DNA of 61,782 nucleotides from an uncultured Methanosarcinales archaeon (GCA_964405295.1 CAYONI010000005.1:1-61782); one strand, 5' to 3'. Positions 1 to 15,003 are shown, counted from the stretch's first letter. Notes: generated by a model not told the origin, from the sequence alone. Numbers and translations are program-made.

Positions 1-138
1 TTTAAACTTTGCTTCAGCATCTTCTGCTTTGTTTATGTCTGGATGATATTTTTTTGCAAGTTTTTTGTAGGCTTTTTTGATCTCCTCTTTAGAAGAACCC
101 TTTTCTACATTTAGTATTTTATAATAATCTTTAGACAT
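1..138 (-). CDS. dnaJ: Chaperone DnaJ, N-terminal J domain (runs off window)
   Basis: Manual translation [37 protein letters not shown], with HPD motif; downstream of dnaK. Confidence 0.95.
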
Positions 139-139
139 T

Positions 140-826
140 TTATCCTTCAATTTCTTGGTCTTTATCAATATTGTGTTGTTTAAATAATTCTTCTATTGTA
201 ATATTATTTAGTTTGTTGCAGTCTTCTGGTTCTGCATCTATCTTTGAAAATAGTTGTGTTTCAAGTTTTAACAATTTCCCATCTTGGTCAACTACTTTTA
301 ACCAATCTTCATATGTTGTATACAAATGTTTATACGCAAGATGTAAATTAAGAATTCTTTTTTCAATAGATAACACTTTGCTTCCATTTGCCCTAAGATC
401 AGAATATGCTAATAATTTAGTTGGAATGTTAGGTTCAGTTATATCAAACCAAAAACCGTGTGGACGTATTAACTTTGCTATTGAGGGATAATCTTCTTTT
501 AATTCTAAATAAATCATTTCTTCATGATTTAAATCTGGATACTTAATCTTTAATTTTCTCCAAAACCTTATTTGATCTTCTGTATACTTATATTTTTCTT
601 TTACTTTTTCAAAGTCACCAGAATTACATATTGGTTTCATGATATCGTGCATTACTGCAGCAATAATCATTCTCATTTGTTCTTGATTTGTTATTAATCC
701 TTTTTTCAGATATTGCTCAGACATAAAAACTACAACTTTGATAACATTTAGAGTATGCTCTCTAATCTTTTCTGGCAAATAATATTTATCCCATAATTTA
801 AATGCTTTGTTAATACTAATTTTCAT
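140..826 (-). CDS. HD-domain phosphohydrolase
   Basis: H (REHT)...HD (VMHDIMK)...H...H...D (YSDLR) metal-binding pattern. Confidence 0.8.
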
Positions 827-827
827 T

Positions 828-1040
828 TTATACTAATGTTTTAGAATCATACATCTTTTTTGGTGTGTGATGATACATTTTTAGTTTCATTTCTTGTTCT
901 TGATTAATTGATAATAAATTATCAGAATAATCTTTAGAAAGATAAGATGCTGCTGATCCACGCTGAGCTAGAGGTTTATTAAAATCTCTTTGCAATTCAT
1001 ATTGCATGAACTTTTGCTGTTGATATATTGTCGGTGGCAT
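828..1040 (-). CDS. Small hypothetical protein
   Basis: 70-aa ORF tightly packed between dnaK and HD gene on same strand. Confidence 0.55.
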   Translation of the reverse strand: MPPTIYQQQKFMQYELQRDFNKPLAQRGSAASYLSKDYSDNLLSINQEQEMKLKMYHHTPKKMYDSKTLV

Positions 1041-1064
1041 TTTAAAAAAAAAGTAAGAAAAAAA

Positions 1065-2942
1065 CTATTTCTTTTCCTCTTTATCCTCTTTGACTTCTTC
1101 TTTGTTATCCTTAACTTCTTCGTAGTCTGCATCCACAACTTTCTCGTCATCCTTTTTACCTTCAGGCTTTTGAGATCCAGCTTGTTGTGCAGCTTGTTGT
1201 TCTGCTGCAGCTTTCTTGTACATTTCTTCTGAAACTTTCTGGAATTTTGTAGTTAATTCATCTTTTGCTTTTTTGATTAACTCATAATTCTTTTCTTTGT
1301 CTTTCAAAAGTTCTTTTAAACCATCAATATCTTTTTGGATGCTTTCTAGTTCTTTCTTGTCAACTTTGTCTCCCATTTCTTTCAGAGTTTTTTCGTATTG
1401 GAAAACAATTGCTTCTGCTTGGTTAAGAGTTTCTACTTTTTCTTTCTTAGCCTTGTCTTCTTCTGCGTGAGCTTCTGCGTCTTTTCGCATTTTCTCAATT
1501 TCTTCTTCTGAAAGATTAGTTGTTGCAGTTATCTTAATACTCTGTTCTTTCTTTGTTCCCAGATCTTTTGCAGATACATGAACAATTCCGTTTGCATCAA
1601 TATCAAATGTTACTTCGATTTGAGGTATGCCTCTTGGTGCTGGCGGAATTCCCAATAAATCAAATTGTCCTAGAGTTTTGTTATCAATAAACATTGATCT
1701 TTCTCCTTGACCTACTCTAATTGTTACAGCAGGTTGGTTGTCTGCAGCTGTACTGAAGATTTGAGATTTCTTACTTGGGATAGTTGTGTTCTTATCTATT
1801 AGTTTTGTAAATACTCCACCTAGAGTTTCAATTCCCAGACTTAGAGGTGTTACATCTAATAATAGAACGTCTTTAACTTCTCCTGCTAGGATTCCACCTT
1901 GAATTGCAGCTCCCAGAGAAACAGCTTCATCTGGATTAACAGATTTGTCTCCGTCTTTACCAGTTAATCTCTTTACCATTTCTTGAACAGCGGGTATTCT
2001 AGTTGAACCTCCCACAAGAATAACTTTGTCTATTTTTGTTTCTTTAGCATCAGCTATTGCTTTTTTTGCAGGCTCTTCTAGTTTTGTTATAATATCTCCT
2101 ATTAAAGCTTCGAATCTTGCTCTTGTTAATTCTTTTTCTAGATGTTTTGGGCCATCTTGATCTGCAGTGATAAATGGTAAGTTAATACTTGCAGTCATCT
2201 TACTTGATAATTCTATCTTAGCTTTTTCTGCAGCTTCTTTTAATCTTTGCATTGCAGTTTTGTCACTGGTTAGGTCGATGTTTGTTTGTTTTTTGAATTC
2301 ATCTGCTAACCAATTCATTACTAAGTTATCAATATCGTCTCCACCCAGGTGATTGTTTCCGCTTGTAGATTTTACTTCGAAAACTCCGTCTCCTAGTTCT
2401 AGAACAGAAACATCGAAAGTTCCTCCTCCAAAATCGAAAACTAGAATTGCGTGATCATTTGTTTTTGTTAAACCATAGGCTAAACTTGCTGCAGTTGGCT
2501 CGTTGATTATTCTTAGAACTTCTAAACCTGCAATCTTTCCTGCATCTTTAGTTGCTTGTCTTTGAGAGTCTTCAAAGTAAGCTGGAACAGTGATTACTGC
2601 TTTAGTTACTTTTTGTCCTAGATAAGCTTCTGCATCTGCTTTAAGTTTTTGCAGAATCATTGCTGAGATTTCCTGAGGAGTATAGTCTTTACCTTCTAGA
2701 GGAAATTTCTTATCTTCTCCCATGTGTCTCTTAATACTTGCAACTGTGTGTTCCGGGTTTGAAACAGCTTGGTTTCTTGCCACACGACCCACTAGTTTTT
2801 CTTTATTCTTATATGCAACTACACTAGGAGTTGTTCTTTCTCCTTCTGCATTCGGTATGATTACAGGTTTACCTGCTTCCATTACTGAAACTGCAGAGAA
2901 AGTTGTTCCAAGATCGATTCCAATTATTTTTTCTTTATTCAT
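1065..2942 (-). CDS. dnaK: Chaperone DnaK (Hsp70)
   Basis: [21 protein letters not shown] motifs. Confidence 0.99.
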
Positions 2943-3058
2943 TTTTTTTTACCTCGTTATTTTGTTTTATTTTAATATTATCGTCGAGCATTACTCGATA
3001 TTTTCCAGAACTTTGTTCTGGGTTTTGCCACGTTCTAGATGGGGGTTAGTAATGAAAA

Positions 3059-3676
3059 TTACAATCCTTGCCTTTGCTCTTTATCTCTTCTTTCAGATAT
3101 TTCTTTAGTAGTTTTTCCTTCATTAAAGTCTCTTTCAATTTTATCAAACTCTGCTTTAGTTTGTTTTCCAATAGAACCTCTAGAAATTTTAACTTTAGCA
3201 GATCGAATGACAACACCATTTAATTCATAACCTTCTTGTAATACTTCTAAAACTATATCAGAATTTTTATCAGAATGTTCAGTCAATAGAACTTCTTGTT
3301 TATAAGGATCAAATAATTTTCCTTCTCCATCTATTTTCTTTAATCCATTTTCTTCTAGTATTGAATAAAAGTTTGAGTAGATAAGTTCCATTCCTTTAAT
3401 GAACTCTTTTGAGTCTTTATTTTGGAATCCTAATTGAAAGTTATCTAGAATTGGTAATAAATTTTTTATTAGCTCTTTATTTGCTAACTTAGCAAATCTC
3501 AGGTTGTCATTTGCATTTCTCTTTTGAAAGTTTTCAAATTCTGCTTGTAACCTTTGTAAGTGTAGAGTTAAATCTAATTTGTCTTTGTTTAATTGTTCTA
3601 CTTTAGATATCTTTGGTGCTGCTAATCCAGTATGTCCTTTTGCAGCTGCATTCTTCTGATCTTTATTCTTGCCCAT
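3059..3676 (-). CDS. grpE: Nucleotide exchange factor GrpE
   Basis: RLQAEFENFQKR, LLPILDN, FDPYKQE, GYELNGVVIRSAKV; ATG at 3676 preferred to TTG at 3709. Confidence 0.95.
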   Translation of the reverse strand: MGKNKDQKNAAAKGHTGLAAPKISKVEQLNKDKLDLTLHLQRLQAEFENFQKRNANDNLRFAKLANKELIKNLLPILDNFQLGFQNKDSKEFIKGMELIYSNFYSILEENGLKKIDGEGKLFDPYKQEVLLTEHSDKNSDIVLEVLQEGYELNGVVIRSAKVKISRGSIGKQTKAEFDKIERDFNEGKTTKEISERRDKEQRQGL

Positions 3677-3734
3677 CCTAAACCCCTTGATTCGTTGACT
3701 TAAGCTCAACGTAAGAAGGGGTAATATCTACTTG

Positions 3735-3748
3735 TTTATAAAGTTTTC
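3735..3748 (-). promoter_or_regulatory. Putative BRE/TATA promoter of grpE-dnaK operon
   Basis: Minus strand GAAAACTTTATAAA; similar purine-rich+TTTATAAA motifs precede many genes in this window. Confidence 0.55.
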
Positions 3749-3757
3749 GGTGAGATA
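3749..3757 (+). repeat. Left target-site duplication GGTGAGATA
   Basis: Identical 9-mer at 11966-11974, each directly abutting a TIR. Confidence 0.9.
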
Positions 3758-3784
3758 GGCTTTGTGTAATAATAGAAGTAGTTT

Positions 3785-4876
3785 TTACACAAGGTTTTTC
3801 TTTTTTACACAGGCTTCGAAATCTATGTTTATTTTGTTTTCAAATGCTTCTTGTATTAAGACACAGATGTTGTGGCATAAGAATTTGATTTTTATTTCGT
3901 TTGAGTTTGCTATTTCTGTTTTTGTGTTTAAGTGATCTCCAAATCTCTTTTTTATCATATGGAATCCACACTCTATGTTACTTCTAGCATGATATTTTTT
4001 CATGAATTTTTCTTTGTTGTATTTAAATTCTAAGAACATTTTTCTCCATATTGGTGATCCTCTGGCTTTCCCATTAGTATTTTTCTTAAATGGAATGTAA
4101 GAGTTTAATCCTAATTCATGTAAGAACTCGTGAACTCTTTTACTACTGTAAGCTTTGTCTGCGGTGAAGTTTTCTAAGTTAAAGTGTTTGGTTTTGTTCC
4201 CTATAACTTTTTCCAGCATAGAAATGTCTCCTTTGTTTTTTGTTGTTACTTCTACTGATAAGAAAGTGTTTGTTTTACAACCTATTACTGCATGGGCTTT
4301 TCTCCATACTCTTTCTTTACCAGTATGTTTGCCCCATTTGTAATTAAACCATTGGTCAAATCTTGATATTGAGAATCCTGTGCTGTCTATTGCTCCTGTT
4401 GTTTCAAGTTGTGCTAAGGGAATTGCTGTTATTAGAATTAGATCGTCTATTATTTTGTTTAGTTCTTTTGAGTTAAAGAAGTTATCTATACTTTTGAAAC
4501 AAGGAACTTTATTTATGTAATGTAAGTTTTTTAGTTCTTTTAATATGCTTTCAGCTTTTCTTAGGTCACTTTTGTAATAAACTTTTATGCACATTGAGAA
4601 TATTCTATCTTTAATACTATAAGGTTTTCTTCCTGGTTTAGGCAATGCTTCTTCAATTGATAAGAATAATAATTCTTCTAATAATTTTTTGAATAAAACA
4701 TCTTCATTAGTTTTAGCATTGTTATATGCGTTCCAGTCTTGAGAATAAGTTTCTTTTTTAGGTTTTATTTCTTCTTCTGGTTCTATAGGTTCAATTGGTT
4801 TAATGAAAGTGTACTGCCCAGAGTGAGTAGGGTATAATTCTATTACTTCATCTTTAGTATTTTCGGCTGATTTCAT
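3785..4876 (-). CDS. IS5-family DDE transposase
   Basis: AIDSTG, TADKAY, YHARSNIECGFHMIK (DDE + Y-R-E-K motif); N-terminal DWNAYN like IS903-group NWxxYN. Confidence 0.92.
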   Translation of the reverse strand: MKSAENTKDEVIELYPTHSGQYTFIKPIEPIEPEEEIKPKKETYSQDWNAYNNAKTNEDVLFKKLLEELLFLSIEEALPKPGRKPYSIKDRIFSMCIKVYYKSDLRKAESILKELKNLHYINKVPCFKSIDNFFNSKELNKIIDDLILITAIPLAQLETTGAIDSTGFSISRFDQWFNYKWGKHTGKERVWRKAHAVIGCKTNTFLSVEVTTKNKGDISMLEKVIGNKTKHFNLENFTADKAYSSKRVHEFLHELGLNSYIPFKKNTNGKARGSPIWRKMFLEFKYNKEKFMKKYHARSNIECGFHMIKKRFGDHLNTKTEIANSNEIKIKFLCHNICVLIQEAFENKINIDFEACVKKKNLV

Positions 4877-4930
4877 ATAAACATAGAAATATGTTTCTAT
4901 TTAAATAGTTTTCGTAACTCTTAAGTAATA

Positions 4931-4971
4931 TCGGCTTAAAATATAGAAAAATATTTAAATGATTAAGCCGA
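4931..4971. promoter_or_regulatory. Inverted repeat TCGGCTTAA/TTAAGCCGA flanking TATA-like box in divergent promoter
   Basis: Perfect 9-bp IR around TATTTAAA between transposase and AbrB-like gene. Confidence 0.5.
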
Positions 4972-4982
4972 CTTTAATAAAT

Positions 4983-5219
4983 ATGGCTGAAATTAACAAA
5001 GAAGAGCTTGCAAACATAGTAGGATACCACGAGGACTCAGAATACCTAAAAGAAGACAGAGCAATAATAAAAGACAAAAAACAATACTCAGTAAGAATCC
5101 CAGCTAAATTTGCAGAAAAAGCTAACATAAAAAAAGAAGACAAATTCAGATTTGTTTTAATACCACCAAATGAAGAAGAAACAGAATTCACAATACAAGC
5201 AACACTAATAAAAAAATGA
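4983..5219 (+). CDS. AbrB/SpoVT-like DNA-binding protein
   Basis: KQYSVRIPAKFAEKANIKKEDKFRF swapped-hairpin pattern; ATG 4983 preferred. Confidence 0.7.
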   Translation: MAEINKEELANIVGYHEDSEYLKEDRAIIKDKKQYSVRIPAKFAEKANIKKEDKFRFVLIPPNEEETEFTIQATLIKK

Positions 5220-5398
5220 AAAAACAAGAATTCAACCCAATAGAGAAAAAAATACTACGATTATTATATCAATCAAAAACAGAACTAACAACCTATGAAG
5301 TAGCAAAATACGCAGAAATAAGCTACCCAACATCAAAAAAATACCTAAAAGAATTAATAAAAAAAGGAGCCATAGAAAAAAATGAAAAAGAAAACTAA
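5216..5398 (+). CDS. Winged helix-turn-helix protein
   Basis: ILRLLY...LTTYEVAKYAEISYPTSKKYLKELIKKG HTH pattern. Confidence 0.75.
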   Translation: MKKQEFNPIEKKILRLLYQSKTELTTYEVAKYAEISYPTSKKYLKELIKKGAIEKNEKEN

Positions 5399-5542
5399 AA
5401 GAAAACCAACAACATACAAATTCAAATTCAACCTACTAAAAGGAATACTCAAAAGAAAAAAAAGAAAATAAAAGCACAACCACAAGACAACAAAGCGTGA
5501 GCTTTAAATAAAAAGTATATCAATTTATGTGGAGAAGAAATT

Positions 5543-7537
5543 ATGAAAAGAGAAGAAACTAATGATATTATGCAATATCTTGTGCCTAAACTAAAGGATG
5601 TAAATATTAATATATCCATTTGTAAAATAGACGTTACAACTGAAAAAAGTGGAAATAAAAGAGGGGATATTTGGATTTCTATTGAAAAACACGAATCAAG
5701 AAACTTTGAAAAAAATATAATTGCCTTAATTGAAGCGAAGCACAAAAATTCCACTATAGGAGATATTGATTGGAGAGATGCTATGCGTCAAGGTAAAGAA
5801 AAGTCATTAAAACAACATTTAGACTATTATATTGTTACTAATTGCAGATCAGAAGTAAGGTTTTATAATTCTCATAATGATGAGGAGATAATACTTGATG
5901 GTAAGGTAATTACTGGACTTGTACCAATTGATGTTTTACAAAAAATTCAAACACAAGTAAACAAGGAAAATTCTTATGTTATACATAAAGTTAGTAAAGT
6001 AATTAAACCTATATCAGAACATAAATTTAGAAATACGCTTAAAAAATTAGCTGATGTTTATAGAAGTGCTGGACTAAAAAAAGGAGATGAGAGAATTGAT
6101 CCAACCATAAGTTTTGTTGTTTTAAAATATATTTCTGAAAAAGAACAAGAACAAAGAACTTTAGATAAAGTCATAAAATTGTGGCACAATTTAAATGATA
6201 TTGCTTCTGAAAAATCTGTTGGAGATTTAAGAGTTGAATTTGACACAATGGTTAATTTGATTTGGGGGAATAAGAGTAGATACAAAGACAATATCTATAA
6301 GGACTTTAAAGATTTAATGATTTTCCCTTCTAAACTAAAAGATGAACATTTTAAGAAGATGTATGCTGAATTAGATGATTATCATTTTCATGGTGCAAAT
6401 TTTGATTTATTTGGTGCAATTTATGAAGAGTTTGCTTCACAAACAAAAAAGAGAGAATTTGGAGAATTTTACACAAGAAGACATATTACTGGTATGGTTG
6501 CAAGAATATTATTAAGAAAAGAAACTAATCCAAGAGAACTTAAAATATGTGATAATGCTTGTGGCACGGGAGGTTTTCTCACAGAGGCTTATAAGGCTCT
6601 TATAATGAATTATTCTGCAAATAATAAACTAAATAAAAATATCTTAAAACAACTTAAACAGAAAACATTTTGGGGTTATGATAACGATGATAAATCTGTA
6701 GCAAGAACAAAATTAAATATGTTTCTTGTAGGTGATGGGCACATTCATATTTACGAAAATGATTCATTAAATGGATGGAATTCAGAAATGGGGTATGAAG
6801 AAAACACTTTTGATTATATCCTAACTAATCCTCCAATGGGTAAATATGATGGTGAAGTAAGTATTAATAATTTTGAGTTTACAAATGAAAGTAAATATGA
6901 ATTGATGTTTTTAGAAAGAGTAATTAAATCTACTAAACCAGGTGGAGAAATTGCAATTGTAATTAATGATGGGACTCTTGAGACTCCATCTAAAGGAGAT
7001 TTTCGGAAAAAAATACTAGAACATTGTAATATCCATGCAGTTATATCTCTAACTAAATTCGCTTTTGCACCTTACACAAAAGAAAAAACATATATAATGT
7101 TTTTACAGAAAAAACAAGATGAAAATGTTGGAGACTTTCAGAAATCCCCAATATGGCATTTTATTGTTGATTATGATAGTTATGCTAATAGTGATAAGAG
7201 ATACAAAACAAAATATCATGATGATTTGCCCGAATTGGAGCAAAATTTTGATTCTGCAATTAAATTATCAAATATTTTTTTAAGTAATTCGTCTATTTTC
7301 AAAAATAGTAGGAGTAATTTTGAACGAGAAGTAAATGACCGAGAAAAAGAAGAGGGACTCGAAGGTCTTAAATATGGATTTATTGAGATAGAAAGAGTCA
7401 ATAAGGGAAATTTCTATAACTTACTAAGTGAATACCATCTTAGACCTTATCAATTAAAGCAAATAAAAGAATCTGATTTTAATTTAAATTTCAAAAAAAT
7501 ACAAGAGAAATTAAAAAGCTTGAGTGAGGGAAAATGA
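5543..7537 (+). CDS. Fused restriction endonuclease-N6 adenine methyltransferase (type IIB/IIG-like RM subunit)
   Basis: N-terminal GD-x-EAK nuclease motif; FGEFYT, DNACGTGGF (motif I), NPPM (motif IV). Confidence 0.88.
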   Translation: MKREETNDIMQYLVPKLKDVNINISICKIDVTTEKSGNKRGDIWISIEKHESRNFEKNIIALIEAKHKNSTIGDIDWRDAMRQGKEKSLKQHLDYYIVTNCRSEVRFYNSHNDEEIILDGKVITGLVPIDVLQKIQTQVNKENSYVIHKVSKVIKPISEHKFRNTLKKLADVYRSAGLKKGDERIDPTISFVVLKYISEKEQEQRTLDKVIKLWHNLNDIASEKSVGDLRVEFDTMVNLIWGNKSRYKDNIYKDFKDLMIFPSKLKDEHFKKMYAELDDYHFHGANFDLFGAIYEEFASQTKKREFGEFYTRRHITGMVARILLRKETNPRELKICDNACGTGGFLTEAYKALIMNYSANNKLNKNILKQLKQKTFWGYDNDDKSVARTKLNMFLVGDGHIHIYENDSLNGWNSEMGYEENTFDYILTNPPMGKYDGEVSINNFEFTNESKYELMFLERVIKSTKPGGEIAIVINDGTLETPSKGDFRKKILEHCNIHAVISLTKFAFAPYTKEKTYIMFLQKKQDENVGDFQKSPIWHFIVDYDSYANSDKRYKTKYHDDLPELEQNFDSAIKLSNIFLSNSSIFKNSRSNFEREVNDREKEEGLEGLKYGFIEIERVNKGNFYNLLSEYHLRPYQLKQIKESDFNLNFKKIQEKLKSLSEGK

Positions 7538-8619
7538 TTAAAAGTGAATTTGGAGAATTATTCAATTATCTCTCAGAAACTAATATCACAGAACAATATT
7601 TCTATGAACACAGAGGAGATTTTCCAGTATATAGTGGACAAACTAAAAACGAGGGGGTGGTTGCATATATCGATTCAGCTAATCAAAAAGAACCAAGTTT
7701 AGTTTTTACTACTTATGGTAGTGCTGGAAAATTAAACTATCGAGAAGGAAATTTTACTATAGGTAGAAATGCTATGGGTTTAAGGCCTAAGAAGAAATAC
7801 AAACAAGATATTAACTTAAAATGGTTTGCTTATAAATTTCAGAATCTTTTTTATAGGTTAAGAATAGGAGATCCCCAAGGTCAAAAAAGCTTAAATAAAT
7901 TGTTGCTTAATAAGATTTCAATAGAAATTCCAGATAAAAAAATTCAGATTAAACAATTATCTTATTATCAAAAAGCCACTGCTCTTAAAAAAGAAATATT
8001 AAACATAAAGACTGAATTGGATAATTTTTTAAAAAGCAAACAACTGATTAAAAAAGCTAAGTATAAAGAACAGATAAAAAAGATTTTTAAGATAGTTGGT
8101 GGCAACAGTGGATTAACTGAAGAATTTGTATATTACAATCAACCAACAAATAATGAAGAAAAAATTAATATTTTATCTGGTGCAACAATAGAAAACAATT
8201 TACTTGGGTTGGTTAACATTAGCTCTAAACTACATAATAAAAAATTAAAGGTATTTGTGGCACCATTTATTCAAATTGTGCGTAAAGGTTTAGCTGGACA
8301 TATGAGGTTTTTTAATAAAGGAAAATTTGTTGCCAATGATGATATTTATATTCTTAAAGTTAGAAATGAATGGAAAGATAGAATAAACTTAAGATGGTTT
8401 TGTTACCAATATCAAGAACTATTTTTTAATCTTGTAACATCAAAAAGTGATAATGCTACTTTTAATAAGAAATATACCGAAGAGCAATTTATTGAAATCC
8501 CTAATGAAAAAATTCAAAAAGAAATAACAGAAAAATTACTTATTTGTGATAATTTATTGAGTTTTATAAAAAGTTTAAGTTTAGAATTAGATAACCTTAT
8601 TGAGTGTGAAATTGTATGA
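7534..8619 (+). CDS. Restriction-modification specificity (HsdS-like) subunit
   Basis: Two repeated TRD-like halves (INLKWFAY / INLRWFCY; IEIPDKKIQ / IEIPNEKIQ); overlaps MTase stop. Confidence 0.85.
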   Translation: MIKSEFGELFNYLSETNITEQYFYEHRGDFPVYSGQTKNEGVVAYIDSANQKEPSLVFTTYGSAGKLNYREGNFTIGRNAMGLRPKKKYKQDINLKWFAYKFQNLFYRLRIGDPQGQKSLNKLLLNKISIEIPDKKIQIKQLSYYQKATALKKEILNIKTELDNFLKSKQLIKKAKYKEQIKKIFKIVGGNSGLTEEFVYYNQPTNNEEKINILSGATIENNLLGLVNISSKLHNKKLKVFVAPFIQIVRKGLAGHMRFFNKGKFVANDDIYILKVRNEWKDRINLRWFCYQYQELFFNLVTSKSDNATFNKKYTEEQFIEIPNEKIQKEITEKLLICDNLLSFIKSLSLELDNLIECEIV

Positions 8620-8659
8620 TGGTATTTTTCTTATAAAATAAAAGCTTACTCAAAATAGA

Positions 8660-9043
8660 TTATTTAATACCTGTTAGTACATCAACTTTTTTTTGTGTTT
8701 CATCATCAAGATTTTTTGAATTATCCATTATTTCTTGAATTTTTTCTTGAATAATTGTGTTTTTGTCTCCCTGAATAATTTGAACATTTTCAGAATTTAT
8801 TATTATTGGTGCATCTTTCTCTTTAGATTTATTTTTTTTAAAGAATTTAATAATATAAGGAGTAAGTATGCTTGCAGTAACATTTATACCAATTTGTAAA
8901 GCAAGAGGGATTGAAGTTTCTTCACCATATGCAGAACGTATATAAAAACCTCCTTTAACATTTTTTATTGAACAGAGCTCTTCCTTAAATTCTTTCACTT
9001 GTGCTCTATTTACTCCTTTAATATCAAAAAATATTTGTTTCAT
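8660..9043 (-). CDS. Hypothetical protein
   Basis: 127-aa ORF with one hydrophobic segment; co-oriented with 9069-9377. Confidence 0.65.
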   Translation of the reverse strand: MKQIFFDIKGVNRAQVKEFKEELCSIKNVKGGFYIRSAYGEETSIPLALQIGINVTASILTPYIIKFFKKNKSKEKDAPIIINSENVQIIQGDKNTIIQEKIQEIMDNSKNLDDETQKKVDVLTGIK

Positions 9044-9068
9044 TTATATTACCAAATTAAATATTTAA

Positions 9069-9377
9069 CTAGGGTTCTGTTTGGTCTGTTTTTTTGTATG
9101 CATAAATATATTTTGCGTCTTCGTCTGCACCACCTGTGCCACCATCAGTTCCAATAGTTTCAATAAAGTAGTTTTCAATTTCTCGAGCATCTTCAAAGTT
9201 ATCTGCTTCTTTATATATACGCCATGCATTTTGTTTTGGTACTTTATGATCACCAAATAATCTTTGTTCAATATCTTCAGTAATTCCAACATACCAAGTT
9301 TTCTTTTTGCTACCTTCTTTGTTGATATGTGCAAGTATTTCTCTTTTTATTTGTTCTTTTTCCATATAAATCACCAT
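9069..9377 (-). CDS. Small GIY-YIG-like nuclease-fold protein
   Basis: WYVGITEDIEQRL...H...AREIE pattern; YIYAY at C-terminus. Confidence 0.6.
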   Translation of the reverse strand: MVIYMEKEQIKREILAHINKEGSKKKTWYVGITEDIEQRLFGDHKVPKQNAWRIYKEADNFEDAREIENYFIETIGTDGGTGGADEDAKYIYAYKKTDQTEP

Positions 9378-9463
9378 TTAGTTTAAGTTATTATTGATAA
9401 AAACACAAATTTTTATAAACTTTTCTATAAATTCGGCTGAAAGTATATACTATTATAAAAAGC

Positions 9464-9525
9464 AATAAAAGTGCAAAAACACCTATTTTTTGTACAAAAG
9501 CAATAAAGGTGCAAAGCTAATATAT
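9464..9525 (+). repeat. 62-bp module copy 1 (AATAAAAGTGCAAAAA...AATAAAGGTGCAAA..AATATATT)
   Basis: Same two boxes, same 38-bp offset, at 9797-9858. Confidence 0.7.
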
Positions 9526-9589
9526 TTGGCTTTGCACATTTAATTAGTCTTTTTGCACATTATTAGAATTTTCACAGAATTTAAAGTAA

Positions 9590-9745
9590 TTATTTTTTTA
9601 ATTCAAACTTTTTACATTTCCCATCCTTTAACTTCCCATTCACACTACATCTAAAAGGAACACCAATACTTCTTACATTTGCACCTTCAGGTATTTCACC
9701 TTCATTACCATGTTTACATTTTCTACAAAGAGGGTATAACTCCAT
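9590..9745 (-). CDS. Small Cys-rich (zinc-finger-like) protein, 51 aa, not in ORF track
   Basis: Manual translation MELYPLCRKCKHGNEGEIPEGANVRSIGVPFRCSVNGKLKDGKCKKFELKK. Confidence 0.65.
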   Translation of the reverse strand: MELYPLCRKCKHGNEGEIPEGANVRSIGVPFRCSVNGKLKDGKCKKFELKK

Positions 9746-9796
9746 ATTATATATAAAAATAAAGCTTATATTTAAATTAGCCGATTATTAAAAGTG

Positions 9797-9858
9797 AATA
9801 AAAGTGCAAAAATCATTTATAAATATGCAAATCAAATAAAGGTGCAAAACCAATATAT
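9797..9858 (+). repeat. 62-bp module copy 2
   Basis: Direct imperfect repeat of 9464-9525. Confidence 0.7.
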
Positions 9859-9896
9859 TGATTAAATTTATATATAAACCAACATTATAATTACAT

Positions 9897-10499
9897 ATGT
9901 TATTTTCAATTGATGCAAATGTTCCAATATCATTTAATGAATCTAAACATTTCGATTTTTTAGAAAAATTTAAACATAACTTTACTATTGATGAAGAAAA
10001 CTTAAAAGAATGTTCAAAAGATGGGCTTTATAGAAAAGTATCAAATATACAAGATATAGATATTAATTTTACTCTACCTGAAGAATTAGTACTATATGTA
10101 GAATGGTTATATAAAGAAAAATTAAAAAAACCAATACATCAGAAGAATAAAAATGATTATAGAGTTATTGCTAATGCAATAGATAAAGAAGCAGATTATA
10201 TATTAACAAACGACAGGATTTTATTTCATACTTTTAATAAAATACGAAATATTGATAAACAAGAAAAGAAACTTATTCCAGATAACTTAAAAATTATTCA
10301 TATTGCTGCTTTTTTAAGATTATTACCAGATATGGGATATGACACTAAACTCGTTGCAAGATTAAACAAGAGCATATATTGTAAAACTGAAATTCCAAAC
10401 AACACAATAAATATACAAAAGATGGGTTGGAAAATAATTCATGTTCAGGAAATATTTAATCCTTATGGGGATAATTTAATAAATTTAGCTAAAGGGTGA
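9897..10499 (+). CDS. PIN-domain protein
   Basis: SIDANV...E...NDYRVIANA...ILTND acidic PIN pattern. Confidence 0.7.
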   Translation: MLFSIDANVPISFNESKHFDFLEKFKHNFTIDEENLKECSKDGLYRKVSNIQDIDINFTLPEELVLYVEWLYKEKLKKPIHQKNKNDYRVIANAIDKEADYILTNDRILFHTFNKIRNIDKQEKKLIPDNLKIIHIAAFLRLLPDMGYDTKLVARLNKSIYCKTEIPNNTINIQKMGWKIIHVQEIFNPYGDNLINLAKG

Positions 10500-10503
10500 T
10501 AAA

Positions 10504-10713
10504 ATGAAATTTTTAAATAAATTATTACTAAAACGAAAAGATAGGGTTTTTTCTTCAGAAAAGGAAATTCAATTAATGAATGAAATAAGAGAAGATTTTA
10601 TTAAGAAACTTGAAGAAAAAGAAAAGAAATCTTTTAAACATTCTACCTTAATTCATTCTCCAGAAATAAATTATAAAAAGAAAATAATAATAGAAAAAAC
10701 ATTGAGTGCATAA
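10504..10713 (+). CDS. Small hypothetical protein
   Basis: 69-aa ORF with GGTGA SD, tightly packed between neighbours. Confidence 0.55.
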   Translation: MKFLNKLLLKRKDRVFSSEKEIQLMNEIREDFIKKLEEKEKKSFKHSTLIHSPEINYKKKIIIEKTLSA

Positions 10714-10714
10714 A

Positions 10715-11026
10715 ATGGTTGACAAAAAAGAAAATAAAAGAATTGCAAGAACTCCTACTTTTACTAAATATTATGTAACTAATGTTATCAATACAGTAAC
10801 TGAGCAAGATATTAGGTTAGAATTTTTTAATGAAAAAGTAAAAAATGATAAAGATGAATTCATTTTCTTATCTGATTTTCTTGTTATTTTTTCTCCAATC
10901 GGAGCAAAAAAGACATTAAAGGAATTAAAAGACGCCATTGATGTTTATGAAAAAAATAATGGGGTAATAGAACTAAAAAAAGAACCTAAATCTAAAGAAG
11001 AAACCTCAGAAGAAGAGCTTTTATAA
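10715..11026 (+). CDS. DUF3467-like protein
   Basis: YVTNV..TVTEQDIRLEF...SPIGAKKTLKELKDAIDVYEKNNGVI pattern. Confidence 0.65.
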   Translation: MVDKKENKRIARTPTFTKYYVTNVINTVTEQDIRLEFFNEKVKNDKDEFIFLSDFLVIFSPIGAKKTLKELKDAIDVYEKNNGVIELKKEPKSKEETSEEELL

Positions 11027-11036
11027 TTTCTTAGAA

Positions 11037-11255
11037 TTATGTTGTGTGTAGTGTTGTTGTATGGTTGTTTTTGTTGATTTTTATTTTTTTTAGCCATTCT
11101 AGTTGTTCGCAGTGTTCTTTTAGGCTTTGAGGGTTGGTGCCTATTTTTCTTTCTAGTTTGGACATTGTTATGCCTGGATTATCTTTGATCATTGCTAGTA
11201 TTTCTTGTTGTAATTTTAGTGCTTTTCTCTTCATACTACGTTTTTGTAGAAACAT
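11037..11255 (-). CDS. Winged helix-turn-helix protein
   Basis: ILAMIKDNPGITMSKLERKIGTNPQSLKEHCEQL. Confidence 0.75.
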   Translation of the reverse strand: MFLQKRSMKRKALKLQQEILAMIKDNPGITMSKLERKIGTNPQSLKEHCEQLEWLKKIKINKNNHTTTLHTT

Positions 11256-11302
11256 TTATATATTATTATGCTACAATATCGTAGTAATATAGGTGATATT
11301 AA

Positions 11303-11632
11303 ATGAAAAAAACAATACTTTACTTAATAATAGGCGTAATTATCATAATCTTAGCAGTGGTCGTATTTGCTATTCTAATGCCTAGTACCACGGTGAAAGA
11401 ATCCACTGAAAGCGAACCACATCGTGTTGATGGTTCTTATGTTGATGAGGCAGTAGGTGTGTCTTGTAATAAGGATTCTGATTGTTCTAGTGGGGAAGTT
11501 TGTATACGTTTTAATGATCCTTCAAAGAATAAGTGTGTAGAACAAGGAACTGGTGGCTCACCTATTTGTGGCGATAAGGTTTGTGAATCTAATGAAATTA
11601 GTACTTGCCCAAGAGATTGCAGTGCAAACTAA
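11303..11632 (+). CDS. Membrane-anchored Cys-rich protein
   Basis: N-terminal TM; CNKDSDC and CGDKVCE...CPRDC repeats typical of DPANN surface proteins. Confidence 0.75.
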   Translation: MKKTILYLIIGVIIIILAVVVFAILMPSTTVKESTESEPHRVDGSYVDEAVGVSCNKDSDCSSGEVCIRFNDPSKNKCVEQGTGGSPICGDKVCESNEISTCPRDCSAN

Positions 11633-11648
11633 AACAAATTAAATAATT

Positions 11649-11882
11649 TTATAGCTGTCCAAACACCCCAAAAAATATTGATTGTGATATGATCCAAGAG
11701 ATAATGCTTATTATTATAGCTATAATGTTCAAAATTAAGACTTTCTTATCTTTCTGTTTATAACTGATAAGAGATCCAACCAAACCCAAGAATATTCCAA
11801 CAATTGGGACTAATAATCCTAATATGATGCCTAAAATAGCACATAATACTCCTTTAAGCCTAGAAACAACCTTCTTTACCAT
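11649..11882 (-). CDS. Small membrane protein
   Basis: Two to three hydrophobic helices, LLVPIVGIFLG. Confidence 0.7.
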   Translation of the reverse strand: MVKKVVSRLKGVLCAILGIILGLLVPIVGIFLGLVGSLISYKQKDKKVLILNIIAIIISIISWIISQSIFFGVFGQL

Positions 11883-11965
11883 ATTTTATTATTAGAATTA
11901 AATATTTATAAAATCTCCTCACAAAAACCGAGTTTTTACACAAAACACCCTATTTACACAAAGCC

Positions 11966-11974
11966 GGTGAGATA
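11966..11974 (+). repeat. Right target-site duplication GGTGAGATA
   Basis: Identical to 3749-3757. Confidence 0.9.
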
Positions 11975-12094
11975 GAAAGAGAATTTCGTTTAATCTATGT
12001 TAAACTCAATTGAGAAAGAGAACTAAAACCAAAAGGGACACAAAATAAAGATTATCAGGAAACTTATTAAATGAATTAGCAATACAAAGTTATT

Positions 12095-12829
12095 ATGAAC
12101 TCCATTCAAAAAATAAAACTAAATATAGAATCACTACTAGGATTAACAAATTCAGAACCAACTTTTTTTTCGTCAATTTCTTATTATGTGAAAAAATTAC
12201 ACGAATCCATGAACAATGAACAAATAGACGTTGATGAATTAAAATTTCTAATTAATAAAATAGAAGAATTTTATAAAAAATATAGACCATCTGACACCCC
12301 AGGAGTTTTTTATATAAGTCCTAAACAGATTTCTAATTCAGATTCTATTGTTAAAGAAATATATCAACTGATAGATGAATTATCAAAAAAGACACCTGAA
12401 GAAATTGAAGAAGAACTAAGTAAAACAAGAAAAAAAGTAGAAATAACTAATTCTTTAAATATTATTGATAGAAGATTATTAGATTCTTGTAAAACTGCTT
12501 TCGATTCTAAAGATTATTGGGATTTTGTGTTTAAGGCAATGAGACATTTAGAAATAAGGATTAGAAAAAAAGCAAATCTTAATCCCGAAGATACAGGAAT
12601 TGGTTTAATTACAAAAGCATTTCATATCATGAATGGAAAACTTAAAATTCCTTCTTGCGAAACCTCTTCAGAAGAGGAAGGTTTCTTTCATATATTAAGA
12701 GGAATTGTAATGTTTCATAGGAATGCAAAAGGTCATAGGGAAGGAAACATTGACAAAAAAAGAGCATTACAAATAGTCCAATACATTGATTATTTAATTG
12801 ATATGGTAGAATCTTCAGTTATAAGATAA
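12095..12829 (+). CDS. TIGR02391 (Ymh/HEPN-like) family protein
   Basis: C-terminal YWDFVFKAMRHLEIRIR...GLITKAF...EEEGFFHILRG...RNAKGH. Confidence 0.8.
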   Translation: MNSIQKIKLNIESLLGLTNSEPTFFSSISYYVKKLHESMNNEQIDVDELKFLINKIEEFYKKYRPSDTPGVFYISPKQISNSDSIVKEIYQLIDELSKKTPEEIEEELSKTRKKVEITNSLNIIDRRLLDSCKTAFDSKDYWDFVFKAMRHLEIRIRKKANLNPEDTGIGLITKAFHIMNGKLKIPSCETSSEEEGFFHILRGIVMFHRNAKGHREGNIDKKRALQIVQYIDYLIDMVESSVIR

Positions 12830-12883
12830 TTTGAATTCGTAATAAGAAAAAAGGGCAGTTTTCCTAATTAAAGAGCATTTTGA

Positions 12884-13630
12884 CTAAAATATCTTTTCCA
12901 CTTTATATTTATTGGAATAATTTATAACATTTCCAGAATAAGTTAAAATTTTTAATAGTATCTTATCGACCAATAATTTAATTAATTCGTAGTCTTTTAG
13001 TGGCTGAGTGTAATCTACAAATCTGACTTCATGAACAATTTTATTTCTATTATCTTTTATCCTTTTTATATCAGAAGAAGAATATTCAAATTCTAAATGC
13101 TTCAAAACAGCATTAATTTTCTTTTTTAATGTTTTAAAAGCTAGTTTTGAACATATGTTTTTAATATGCACCCTATCAATAGAAATTTTTTCTTGTTTTA
13201 GGTATTTATTAATTGTACCAGTCATGTTTATGATAACATCATTATCTTCTTCAACATTTAAATTATTCTTATTTCTTATTACTTCAACACATAATTCTAA
13301 AGCAGAACTAAGTAAGAGATATCTTGATTCTAGTAATTTAGCTAACTCAGCTTGACAAATTATATCTATTACATTATCCAATTTTAATTTTTTCTTATAC
13401 ATTAATTCTTTAGAATTAGATTGATGTTTATCTTTATTATTAAGAAATTCTTGCAAAGACAAAGGACCGATACAATCAACTAGGTCTGCTTCACCAATTA
13501 TTGTTCCTGAACCACTTTTTATTAAACCTATTTTCCCTCTTTTATGTGTTCTTGACCCTCTAATCTCCCAAGTCTTAACACCAGATAAAATTAAATCAGT
13601 ATAAGGTTCTTTTATTATTAAACAATCCAT
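12884..13630 (-). CDS. ASCH-domain / HEPN-domain fusion protein
   Basis: N-term LIIKEPYTDLILSGVKTWEIRG (ASCH GxKxxExR); C-term RNKIVH (HEPN RxxxxH). Confidence 0.7.
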   Translation of the reverse strand: MDCLIIKEPYTDLILSGVKTWEIRGSRTHKRGKIGLIKSGSGTIIGEADLVDCIGPLSLQEFLNNKDKHQSNSKELMYKKKLKLDNVIDIICQAELAKLLESRYLLLSSALELCVEVIRNKNNLNVEEDNDVIINMTGTINKYLKQEKISIDRVHIKNICSKLAFKTLKKKINAVLKHLEFEYSSSDIKRIKDNRNKIVHEVRFVDYTQPLKDYELIKLLVDKILLKILTYSGNVINYSNKYKVEKIF

Positions 13631-13782
13631 TTATAGAATTAGAGGAAATTTATTTAAAAGTTCTTCTAAAACATTCAACCTACCAAAAACAAAACCTCTG
13701 CAAAACTTTGCGTTAGCAAACTTATCTTTTTGCAGCAAAATAGAGAAAGATTAATAAAAACCCTTCACAATAACAAAATAAA

Positions 13783-14193
13783 ATGAAAAAATCATTTTTA
13801 AAAACAACATTTTATTCCTTGATAATCACTTTCATTCTTATAATAATATATTTCCTAATACCCTTTCCTTCAACTATCCAAAGAGCATCTTTTCTATTAC
13901 TTGCAATATTAGGAGTTATATTTCTTGTGCTAGGTGTTATGCTTATATTTATTTCTAGAAAAGAAAAAGGAAAATTAAGATTGTTTTTAATGTCAACTGG
14001 GATTTCAGCAGTAGCTCCTTTAGTTTCTACAATATTACACAACTTATTTTATGCTTTATCTATAACTTTTGAAAACTTTAAGTATTTATTTGAAGCATTA
14101 CACGCAACTTTCTTTATAATTGCAATGATTATCGCCCCAATAGTATTTATTGCTGGAATAATAGGTAGTATAATCCTTTTTAAAAAGAAATAA
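13783..14193 (+). CDS. Membrane protein
   Basis: Four hydrophobic helices, ILHNLFYAL. Confidence 0.8.
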   Translation: MKKSFLKTTFYSLIITFILIIIYFLIPFPSTIQRASFLLLAILGVIFLVLGVMLIFISRKEKGKLRLFLMSTGISAVAPLVSTILHNLFYALSITFENFKYLFEALHATFFIIAMIIAPIVFIAGIIGSIILFKKK

Positions 14194-14259
14194 TTAATCT
14201 AACAAACATTTATAAACATCTGCAACTAATCAAATCATTAATATACGGGGGTTTTACAA

Positions 14260-15003
14260 ATGATATTTTACGTAATATTAGTAATAGTTATACTTTACAT
14301 CTTATCGTCTATTAAAGTTATAACACAATACCAAAAAGGAGTTATATTTACTTTAGGAAAATTCTCAGGGATATATAATCCAGGATTAAAACTTATTTTG
14401 CCAATATTTCAAGTCTGGCACAGAATTGATATGAGACTTAAAGCAGTTGATGTTCCTGATCAGGATGCAATAACTAAGGATAATGTTTCTTTAAAGGTTA
14501 ATGCAGTTCTATACTTTAAAGTTTCAGAAGCAAGTAAAGCTGTTCTAGAAGTAGAGCACTATCAATATGCAGTTTCTCAACTAGCTCAAACTACAATGAG
14601 AGATGTTGTTGGTGAAGTTACACTTGACAACTTGTTAAGTAAGAGGGATATGGTTTCTAAAAGGATTAAAGAAATTGTTGATGCAGCTACAGATCCCTGG
14701 GGAATTAAGGTTGAATCTGTTGAGTTAAAACATGTTGAACTTCCAGAAAACATGAAGAGAGTTCTTGGAAAAGAAGCAGAAGCTGAAAGAGAAAAAAGAG
14801 CTGTTATAATTAAAGCAGAAGGAGAAGTTATTGCATCAGATAACATGGCTAAAGCAGCAACCACATTAGCAAAAGCACCAGGAGCCCTACATCTAAGAAC
14901 ATTGCAAAGTATGAATGATATGTCAAGCGATCAAAGCAATACAATAATATTTGCAGTGCCTCTAGAAATACTAAGAGCTTTTGAAAGACACGGTAAGAAA
15001 TAA
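14260..15003 (+). CDS. SPFH/stomatin (slipin) family protein
   Basis: ITKDNVSLKVNAV, AQTTMRDVVG, WGIKVESVE, AEAEREKRA. Confidence 0.95.
   Translation: MIFYVILVIVILYILSSIKVITQYQKGVIFTLGKFSGIYNPGLKLILPIFQVWHRIDMRLKAVDVPDQDAITKDNVSLKVNAVLYFKVSEASKAVLEVEHYQYAVSQLAQTTMRDVVGEVTLDNLLSKRDMVSKRIKEIVDAATDPWGIKVESVELKHVELPENMKRVLGKEAEAEREKRAVIIKAEGEVIASDNMAKAATTLAKAPGALHLRTLQSMNDMSSDQSNTIIFAVPLEILRAFERHGKK

Follow-up and report, generated by a model that had tools for sequence, protein, structure and literature searches.

In the 61,782-nucleotide stretch of DNA from an uncultured Methanosarcinales archaeon that was analysed here (GCA_964405295.1 CAYONI010000005.1:1-61782; hereafter, the window), the segment 3758-11965 is very probably an intact, autonomous and non-composite transposon, i.e., a "transporter insertion sequence (IS)", a member of an IS903-like IS5-family lineage frequently found in the DPANN archaea of the class. 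Close homologues bear the database names Woesearchaeota and Pacearchaeota. The element measures 8,208 bp between perfect 12-bp inverted ends, encodes one DDE transposase, is framed by an identical 9-bp target-site duplication, and stands directly beside the B recognition element (BRE) and TATA box of the grpE promoter. A unit transposon of this kind had been proposed in an earlier, sequence-only reading of the window, and the proposal is borne out by the single transposase, the one pair of terminal inverted repeats and the one duplication around the whole, with the same arrangement in 25 relatives. The insertion just upstream of the grpE BRE and TATA box, which the same reading had described as leaving the promoter undisturbed, is likewise real, and its position proved to be a rule of the family and not luck.

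Ends, transposase and relatives of the element

The terminal repeat GGCTTTGTGTAA occupies 3758-3769 and its reverse complement 11954-11965, and the direct repeat GGTGAGATA abuts each end on the outside (3749-3757 and 11966-11974), in full agreement with the sequence-only reading. No further perfect copy of the terminal 12-mer exists in the window or in the 1.27-Mb genome of 98 contigs; therefore, the coincidence of 21 bases of inverted repeat and duplication is far beyond chance. When up to two mismatches are allowed, the 12-mer is not enriched in the window (8 matches versus 6.25 expected). Both junctions between the element and the host DNA are spanned, without differences, by contigs from two public runs. 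Since the runs probably represent the source samples, they are not independent and exclude only a private assembly error. The element is not distinguishable by its G+C profile.

The subterminal 13-mer reported in the sequence-only reading is real and is part of a wider architecture, in which TTACACAA (3785-3792 and 11936-11943) and TTACACAG (3805-3812) repeat the core of the terminus. Subterminal repeats of this core are present at both ends of the element, and the two ends are not equivalent. Read inward, the distal end consists of the terminal TTGTGTAA, a direct copy 23 nt in, and a weaker copy about 20 nt beyond it; the transposase-proximal end has two inverted copies of the core, 28 and 48 nt in, the first of which contains the stop codon of the transposase gene. 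Over 26 elements (the window element and the 25 relatives described below), the core that is repeated subterminally co-varies with the terminal motif (TTGTGTAA, TTGCACA, TTGTCG, TTGTACGA, TTGTTGAA). At one mismatch or fewer, each element's own terminal 8-mer has 65 matches in the 4,576 positions located 13-100 nt from the ends, and 201 matches in 151,248 positions of the element interiors. A direct copy of the 8-mer is found at distal-end offset 22-24 in 18 of the 26 elements, and a further copy at 43-45 in 10. The co-variation of the core with the terminal motif is good evidence for the binding of a protein at the subterminal repeats.

The transposase has the DWxxYN N-terminus that the sequence-only reading had noted (QDWNAYNN at residues 46-53), it is the only match in its own genome, and no second transposase open reading frame (ORF) lies within 3758-11965. 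The best NCBIfam model for this protein is the IS5_2 equivalog (NF033579), with a score of 138.2 bits versus the cut-off of 140, and the next is IS1182, with 44 bits. When the transposase was compared to plasmids (tblastn), the 25 matches listed were to IS5-family elements only, at 21-28% identity. In an alignment of seven archaeal transposases with that of the bacterial element ISAba10, the residues W48, Y51, A54, D164, D240, Y295, R298, E302 and K309 (window numbering) are invariant; they include the catalytic D164, D240 and E302 and the signature Y295-R298-E302-K309 (Y-x2-R-x3-E-x6-K). Since the catalytic residues are invariant in this comparison, the transposase looks catalytically whole, and it appears IS903-like in its ends, duplication length and protein motifs. 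ISAba10 is 1,024 bp long and has GGCTTTGTTGCA ends, with the inverted copy at the far end, and the 9-bp duplication GTTTCAACA. It thus shares with the window element the GGCTTTGT end, the duplication length, and the W..YN.A and D-D-E/YREK residues, and the link to IS903 drawn in the sequence-only reading is well founded.

Homologues of the transposase were sought in 401 genomes of the order (E<=1e-20) and 401 genomes of the class (E<=1e-30), with G000 included in both counts. They were found in 36 and 47 genomes, respectively, typically as a single match per genome (34 of 36 in the order and 41 of 47 in the class). None of the conclusions drawn here depends on G134, a genome that is not yet published. 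In a collection of 5.8 billion proteins, 319 homologues were found at E<=0.001; the nearest relatives are 68% identical, and the few that are named are labelled Woesearchaeota or "archaeon". We searched 23 order-level and 20 class-level loci for a terminal inverted repeat of 8 or 11 bases with a 9-bp duplication; L033 and L034 were inspected for ends only. Elements were delimited at 15 of the 23 order-level loci (11 with perfect repeat pairs and four with one mismatch in the repeat, the duplication being perfect in all) and at 10 of the 20 class-level loci, again with a perfect 9-bp duplication. With the window element included, the 26 elements span 1,664-11,371 bp, have ends of the (G/A/T)(G/A)C(T/G)TTG type, and all have different duplications. 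In the 11 elements that were resolved at once, the C-terminus of the transposase lies near one end, and extra genes lie beyond its other side; in at least four (L084, L085, L086 and L030), another gene stands between the transposase and the near end. All 26 elements carry extra DNA, and only one is shorter than 2.3 kb, namely the 1,664-bp element, in which the transposase is degraded. Barring this degraded copy, none of the resolved elements has its partner repeat right beside the transposase ORF, an arrangement that the sequence-only reading had named as one that would refute it. Solo ends are present near some of the relatives. As side observations, a GGCTTTG/GGCGTTG-type end of another element abuts the duplication on the promoter-distal side in L061, L065, L096, L100 and L101, and two element ends lie 99 bp apart in L031 (genome G007).

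The sequence-only reading had anticipated that homologous transposases would be located in GGCTTTG-bounded elements with conserved AbrB and winged-helix genes and variable cargo, and the 25 relatives agree with this picture. The pair of genes coding for an AbrB-like and a winged-helix protein was found in nine of the 13 elements examined, directly upstream of the transposase gene and divergently transcribed. Homologues of the AbrB-like protein are in the equivalent place in L062, L071, L072 and L077, and those of the winged-helix protein in L062 and L071; a common stretch of the AbrB-like proteins, Q[YF]S[VIL]RIPKKF, was identified by eye. The pair of the window is nearest to that of G250 (46% and 52% identity). 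L064 has a possible ribbon-helix-helix protein at the position of the module, and in two further loci (L061 17062-17220 and L068 17033-17251) a small zinc-ribbon protein (PF09723-like) was observed in place of the pair. In the relatives, a motif of 8-12 bp that is specific to each element, and often palindromic, occurs two or three times in the divergent region (L032, L063, L065, L071, L072, L077), for example, TTCATATGA in L032, AACCATATGGTT in L077 and AGACCTAA in L065. The repeats in the corresponding region of the window (4877-4958) are a candidate operator for the AbrB-like and winged-helix pair.

The cargo is the variable part. Of the 26 elements, 15 carry genes for DNA methyltransferases or restriction-modification (RM) systems, and these are of several kinds: Type IIG-like fusion proteins (784-1,337 aa), pairs of a methyltransferase and a specificity (S) subunit like that of the window, C5 methyltransferases (one with Vsr), and one N4/N6 methyltransferase. 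Among the other cargo are PD-(D/E)XK nucleases, a UvrD-type helicase, PIN_3, Cas2-like and SocA/Panacea proteins, glycosyltransferases and a papain-like protease; otherwise, the cargo is unrelated between elements. For example, the element of G108 has a transposase 60% identical to that of the window and an identical 12-bp end, with a cargo of DUF6978 and DUF1828/1829 and no RM genes. Eight cargo proteins of the window that were searched besides the AbrB-like protein, the winged-helix protein and the methyltransferase had no match in the other elements.

Position of the elements relative to archaeal promoters

In the first 12 elements, one flank of each (12/12) consists of six bases starting with (G/A/C)(A/T)AA after the duplication, followed by a TATA box. 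We represented the latter by the pattern [TC][TA]T[AT][TA]A[AT]A at positions +7 to +14 after the duplication. The background frequency of this pattern is 626 in 359,760 positions (0.17%), or 378 in 45,659 (0.83%) outside ORFs. Among the held-out elements, the pattern was found in the same register in 12 of 14. Overall, it begins exactly at +7 in 24 of the 52 flanks, one flank each in 24 of the 26 elements, and at any other offset in three flanks at most. The column counts (n=25) are A 17 at -3, C 15 at -1, G/A 23 at +1, and A 25 at both +3 and +4, with TTTATAAA at +7 to +14; the far side has neither symmetry nor pattern. With regard to orientation, it is the transposase-proximal end that lies next to the promoter in 14 elements, and the distal end in 10.

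Housekeeping genes predominate downstream of these promoters: grpE in four cases (the window, G108, G389 and G115), transcription factor B (TFB) in two, ribosomal proteins L34e, L37e and L1, RNA polymerase subunit N, a proteasome subunit, and EF-1 beta. The two TFB genes (PF00382, E ~3e-47) are at L071 480-1400 and L101 13999-14934. The grpE-associated elements represent four genome families, and their perfect duplications all differ. Because the duplications differ, and because congeners have the promoter without the element, we read the four grpE insertions as independent hits. The abutment of five elements by an end of another element, which makes tandem or stacked arrangements at one promoter, is expected if one promoter is hit repeatedly.

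Three genomes of the same genus are without the transposase. In these, the DNA upstream of grpE is 82-88% identical to that of the window up to about 3742-3750, followed by divergence; beyond the insertion point, they carry unrelated genes, and the genes of the right flank of the window are absent from them. Up to the insertion boundary, where the fit ends, a 190-letter contig from run X1, of low depth (2.9), matches window 3694-3752 with four differences; a related strain in which this site holds something else, or nothing, is a possible source.

By analogy to what is known of IS903 and IS5, one DDE transposase, acting through D164, D240 and E302, would bind the GGCTTTG termini as well as the copies of the terminal motif that lie inward of them, would excise or copy the whole segment, and would insert it at a target whose strands are cut 9 bp apart. 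The AbrB-like and winged-helix genes would constitute a conserved accessory module that most likely represses the transposase promoter via the repeats in the 82-bp divergent region, and everything between this module and the distal end would be exchangeable cargo. The choice of target would be directed: with a 9-bp target immediately upstream of the BRE and TATA box, both the promoter and the gene would be kept intact, as for grpE-dnaK in the window. With regard to the manner of recognition, we tentatively suggest that the transposase, either alone or with the AbrB-like and winged-helix proteins, might capture its target via the sharply bent promoter bound by the TATA-binding protein (TBP) and TFB, joining at the upstream edge of the BRE; this is possible, and we would not go so far as to call it probable. 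The TFIIIB subunits TBP and Brf1 are homologues of the archaeal TBP and TFB. If the suggestion is true, it would represent a prokaryotic counterpart of the targeting of Ty3 through TFIIIB, and the family would be a self-targeting "safe-harbour" vehicle of the DPANN archaea that brings RM and other defence genes before strong housekeeping promoters, with grpE as a favourite.

Observations against the interpretation and alternative explanations

Several observations weigh against the interpretation outlined above. The sequence-only reading proposed to look for an empty site in related genomes or reads and for other copies with different duplications; neither an empty site nor a second copy of the 8.2-kb element was found in its own genome, the genome and metagenome collections, the congeners, or the two runs that hold the element. 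The scan of genome contigs gave 29 pattern matches, none of them a relative; in the metagenomes, a single locus was hit, whose sequence is the same as window 1-14876 and which represents the same organism; and no joint of 3757 to 11966 was found in the runs, eight listed joints with sides of 20-30 letters being disregarded. Because neither a second copy nor an empty site was found, the proposed movement of the cargo as one 8.2-kb piece is drawn from the pattern seen in the relatives only, and the insertion would be recent as judged from the perfect ends and duplication and from its absence in the congeners. Among the related loci, 18 of 43 are without a duplication-bearing pair of ends, some of them at contig edges: no credible pair was found in L066, L067, L070, L078, L080, L031, L082, L083, L087, L088, L090-L093, L095 and L099, and L072 and L076 have inverted ends with no matching duplication. 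As for the proteins, the IS5_2 score of the transposase is 1.8 bits short of the curated cut-off; the AbrB label of the sequence-only reading is weaker than claimed, since the MazE/AbrB-type match in the window is below threshold (17.4 bits versus a cut-off of 24.7); and the proposed nuclease domain of the cargo methyltransferase (the N-terminal 266 aa) has nothing usable in Pfam at E up to 1. As for the target, the TATA pattern was defined after the first 12 sites had been viewed, two of the 26 elements break the rule (L100, which abuts another element end, and L073, with the near-miss TATTTAAG), and purifying selection in compact genomes would likewise enrich extragenic insertions.

The last point can be extended to a complete explanation, in which insertion is near-random and the survivors in gene-dense genomes are those located just outside promoters, so that the register reflects survivorship and not targeting. 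Indeed, the genomes are small (0.5-2 Mb) with short intergenic space, insertions in genes or between a TATA box and its gene would do harm, and all the analysed sites are natural and have passed through selection. However, selection would tolerate any place upstream of the BRE, whereas the observed distribution is a spike at a single offset (24 flanks at +7 and no more than three at any other); the base pattern spans the cut (C at -1, a purine at +1, and A in 25 of 25 at +3 and +4); and the five elements that abut an end of another look like repeated hits on one promoter. We consider selection without targeting to be unlikely. The four grpE insertions could also descend vertically from one ancient insertion, the cargo having turned over since. 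The transposases of the window, G108, G389 and G115 are in fact among each other's closest in the sample (60, 55 and 41% identity), but that of G250, which is equally close (60%), lies at a different promoter; the three same-genus genomes keep the grpE promoter with neither the element nor the transposase; and the four duplications are perfect and different, although the promoter-distal copy should decay over family-level divergence. Such a common origin appears very unlikely.

The unit nature of the element can be questioned, too. A small IS903-like element might have inserted, with formation of the 9-bp duplication, and might have acquired its cargo of about 7 kb afterwards, in the interval from the transposase gene to the distal end; in that case, the 8.2-kb unit has never transposed as such. 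This accretion in situ would fit the complete difference in cargo between close relatives (the absence of RM genes in G108 and the eight unmatched proteins of the window), the slightly lower G+C content of the cargo (0.24-0.28) compared to the transposase region (0.29-0.32), and the lack of a known second copy of the 8.2-kb unit. It is hard to reconcile with the fact that all 26 elements are loaded, the only one below 2.3 kb being the 1,664-bp copy with the degraded transposase, and with 25 independent elements that have a perfect duplication around the whole unit, as the transposition of a loaded unit would produce. Accretion is needed at some time for the turnover of cargo, although not necessarily at this site, where we regard it as quite unlikely. 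Finally, the true element might be an IS of about 1.2 kb, with the repeat at 11954 a stray solo end or a chance match, given that classical elements of the IS903 group are about 1 kb long (1,024 bp in ISAba10) and that solo ends do exist near some relatives. Yet nothing end-like is found between the start of the transposase gene (4876) and the AbrB-like gene, the far repeat is flanked by the identical 9-bp duplication, and the relatives have the same long layout. These three facts refute an incidental far repeat, save for the case of an assembly artefact, and contigs bridge both junctions; this explanation is extremely improbable. Two other classes of transposon were rejected for the 8.2-kb unit. 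A composite (Tn903-like) transposon is inconsistent with the one transposase match in the genome and the lack of a second transposase ORF inside, and a unit transposon of the Tn3 family is inconsistent with the 363-aa PF01609 transposase, the 9-bp duplication, and the lack of any resolvase family among the ORFs.

Cargo, known systems and neighbouring genes

The segment 3758-11965 contains 14 ORFs, the transposase and 13 others (Table 1), as the sequence-only reading had estimated for the passengers. The RM cargo named in that reading is present, in the form of a methyltransferase (PF02384) and an S subunit (PF01420) inside the element. The first 270 residues of the 664-aa methyltransferase protein (window 5543-6352) are 58-87% identical in more than 100 archaeal and bacterial proteins, and this RM family looks widely exchanged; proteins with this N-terminal domain were seen under the labels Methanoperedens, Methanoregula, Thaumarchaeota, Pacearchaeota, Oceanobacillus and Zixibacteria, some of them fused to an S domain. 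In 20 aligned homologues, D42, E64 and K66 are invariant. In the AlphaFold model of the protein (predicted local distance difference test, pLDDT, 79.7), the first helix of the N-terminal domain is followed by three strands, another helix and two more strands; D42 lies on strand two, and E64 and K66 lie on strand three. We take the order alpha-beta-beta-beta-alpha-beta with D/E/K residues to be the PD-(D/E)XK pattern, and the domain is, by this model, a putative PD-(D/E)XK nuclease. Residues 155-636 of the model match the modification (M) subunits of Type I systems (EcoKI M: Z 28.8, root-mean-square deviation (rmsd) 5.0, 451 residues aligned). The BsaXI chains match residues 1-574 with Z ~24 and a full-alignment rmsd of ~24 A, which means that the domains match and their arrangement does not.

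We read 5543-8619 as a BcgI/BsaXI-like two-gene RM system with a putative nuclease part, which, in a Type IIB enzyme, would cut on both sides of the recognition site. The likeness to these Type IIB systems consists in the fusion of a predicted N-terminal nuclease with a gamma-class N6-adenine methyltransferase and in the separate two-domain S subunit; the differences from BsaXI are the arrangement of the domains in the model and the nuclease domain without a Pfam match. No HsdR, helicase or ResIII ORF was found in 3758-11965, as opposed to what a Type I RM system would have. PADLOC named no defence system beyond the methyltransferase and the S subunit. The PIN label given in the sequence-only reading to one of the passengers is without Pfam support and survives as a lead from the predicted structure; the 200-, 127- and 69-aa ORFs have nothing usable in Pfam at E up to 1. 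The winged-helix protein near the distal end resembles L032 9430-9675 by eye only, tblastn giving no match at E 1e-3.

Table 1. Coordinates of the element, its ends and genes, and the adjoining grpE promoter in the window.
Feature	Position	Strand	Details
grpE promoter	3735-3749	-	BRE-like CGAAAAC 3749-3743, TATA box TTTATAAA 3742-3735; intact after insertion
Left target-site duplication	3749-3757	.	GGTGAGATA; its first base is shared with the grpE BRE
Transposase-proximal end	3758-3815	+	Terminal repeat GGCTTTGTGTAA 3758-3769; inverted subterminal copies TTACACAA 3785-3792 and TTACACAG 3805-3812
DDE transposase, IS5 family, IS903-like	3785-4876	-	363 aa; PF01609 E 8.4e-24
Divergent promoter region, transposase/AbrB-like gene	4877-4958	.	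82 bp; palindrome ATAGAAA-TATG-TTTCTAT 4883-4900 and a third ATAGAAA copy
AbrB/MazE-like small DNA-binding protein	4959-5219	+	86 aa; weak PF04014, E 0.0043; conserved module
Winged-helix (TrmB/MarR-type) protein	5216-5398	+	60 aa; PF01978 E 2.4e-7; frame overlaps the AbrB-like gene; conserved module
Nuclease-methyltransferase fusion (nuclease part putative)	5543-7537	+	664 aa; PF02384 E 4.9e-39, N6-adenine DNA methyltransferase
Specificity (S) subunit	7534-8619	+	361 aa; PF01420 E 6.2e-15, two target-recognition stretches; PADLOC Specificity_I; start overlaps the methyltransferase stop
127-aa ORF	8660-9043	-	Family searches: none found
GIY-YIG-like protein	9069-9377	-	102 aa; PF01541 E 3.1e-5, 24.6 bits vs cut-off 22.6; marginal
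Putative Cys-rich ORF	9590-9745	-	51 aa; Pfam: none found
Protein with PIN-like predicted fold	9897-10499	+	200 aa; structure matches to PIN/DUF3368 clusters, TM 0.59-0.65; lead only
69-aa ORF	10504-10713	+	No usable Pfam match
DUF3467 protein	10706-11026	+	PF11950 E 5.8e-6
Second winged-helix protein, near distal end	11037-11255	-	72 aa; PF13412 E 2.9e-5
Small predicted membrane/secreted protein	11303-11632	+	109 aa; membrane character by eye; no significant family
Small predicted membrane/secreted protein	11649-11882	-	77 aa; membrane character by eye; no significant family
Distal end	11900-11965	-	Terminal repeat 11954-11965; direct core copy TTACACAA 11936-11943; weaker copy near 11917-11923
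Right target-site duplication	11966-11974	.	GGTGAGATA

The ends of IS903 are simple and 18 bp long, and in Tn903 the cargo lies between two IS copies, unlike the single element of the window. The termini of the IS903 group begin with GGC, and so do those of the window element and ISAba10; IS903 itself presumably has the same end, duplication and protein-motif characters. The window element shares with the IS903 group and ISAba10 the DDE_Tnp_1 transposase, the W..YN.A and D-D-E/Y-R-E-K residues, the GGCTTTGT termini and the 9-bp duplication. It differs from the group in being 8.2 kb long with 14 ORFs, compared to about 1 kb with one ORF, and its transposase differs from that of ISAba10 in some 40 extra N-terminal residues and in an identity of only 23%. 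The asymmetric ends, the subterminal repeats at fixed offsets, and the AbrB-like and winged-helix module of the family are further differences from the group. What is new with respect to IS903 is thus the loaded unit, the accessory module, the end architecture and the target, whereas the enzyme, the ends and the duplication are IS903-like. The purine-AAA half-site next to the duplication recalls the IS903 target motif WTTYA-N9-TRAAW, which is given with a 9-bp duplication in Table 1 of the published study (PMC2577343); as compared to the palindrome of that table, the family has RAAA on one side only, followed by the TATA box (n=25).

Transporter IS hold passenger genes inside the inverted repeats of an IS and move them at every transposition (PMC9330008), and additional DNA with passenger genes has been reported for IS231-type elements (PMC2266710). 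The layout of the window family is the same, but those described are bacterial. The present family occurs in archaea, its members nearly always have cargo, this cargo consists mostly of RM and other nucleic-acid enzymes, and the family has a defined target at the promoter edge. Bacterial transposon-like RM units with inverted repeats and short target duplications have been described by Furuta, Abe and Kobayashi (2010, PMC2853133); one unit of that survey combines a Type IIG RM gene with an S homologue and a gene resembling a transposase, the authors state that their selection left no archaeal RM system, and the units differ from the present family in that they are mostly without an identifiable active transposase, with no family, shared ends or target rule defined.

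The analogy to Ty3 and Tn7 is one of behaviour only: a fixed distance from a landmark, an intact neighbouring gene, tandem arrays on reuse of a site, and a safe harbour. There is no homology, the landmark of the window family is the archaeal BRE and TATA box, and no TnsD-like or TniQ-like protein is present. Ty3 integrates at Pol III start sites via TFIIIB, and Tn7 at attTn7. Elements of the Tn3 family have a transposase of about 1,000 aa, inverted repeats of about 38 bp, a 5-bp duplication, and a resolvase with its res site.

In bacteria, accessory genes travel mainly on cargo-carrying DNA transposons. In a 2019 survey of integrated elements in archaea, transposons with passenger genes are still counted with the classes that were not detected (PMC6563490). 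In a literature search, which left most subscription journals and ISfinder outside its range, neither an archaeal cargo family of the IS903-like type nor targeting to promoter edges was found to be described, and the family, which is apparently large, is apparently undescribed in print. On the interpretation preferred here, i.e., a loaded transporter IS, the element and its 25 relatives show that the DPANN archaea possess a cargo-transposon vehicle, which moves mostly RM genes and other nucleic-acid enzymes and is placed before promoters with single-base precision. This suggests a possible explanation for the spread of defence genes among reduced, host-dependent archaea that are apparently poor in plasmids. 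It would also provide a natural compact system, with one protein of 363 aa and a defined archaeal-promoter target, in which target selection by a simple DDE transposase is directly testable. For annotation, the label "IS5 family transposase" in these genomes should be treated as a warning that it marks the edge of a multi-gene mobile unit beside a housekeeping operon.

The genes that flank the element differ on its two sides. To the right, window 12095-13630 codes for Hypoth_Ymh (PF09509 E 3.4e-17) and for an ASCH protein with a weak match to HEPN_Apea, neither of which was found in the three same-genus genomes. Because the right-flank genes are absent from these genomes, the element appears to lie at the edge of a variable, defence-like island beside grpE. 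The congener matches on the right side are scattered over many contigs, and the extent of the island is not fixed by them; local alignment of the right flank to G002 gave a score of 30, which was equalled in 73 of 500 shuffles, and the score for G001 was equalled in 469 of 500, so that these alignments are no evidence either way.

To the left, the operon consists of grpE (PF01025), dnaK (PF00012) and a third gene. Of the grpE-dnaK-dnaJ operon named in the sequence-only reading, the first two genes stand, and the third is not dnaJ: it codes for a 228-aa HD-domain-like protein (window 140-826; PF01966 E 5.3e-4, below the cut-off). The stretch from the TATA box to the start of grpE contains a near-perfect palindrome, CGTTGAC-TTAAG-CTCAACG (3693-3711). 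Palindromes of the type GTTGA(C)-N-(G)TCAAC are found at the equivalent place before grpE in G108, G389, G115, G001 and G002, and this GTTGAC-type palindrome is a candidate heat-shock operator of these archaea.

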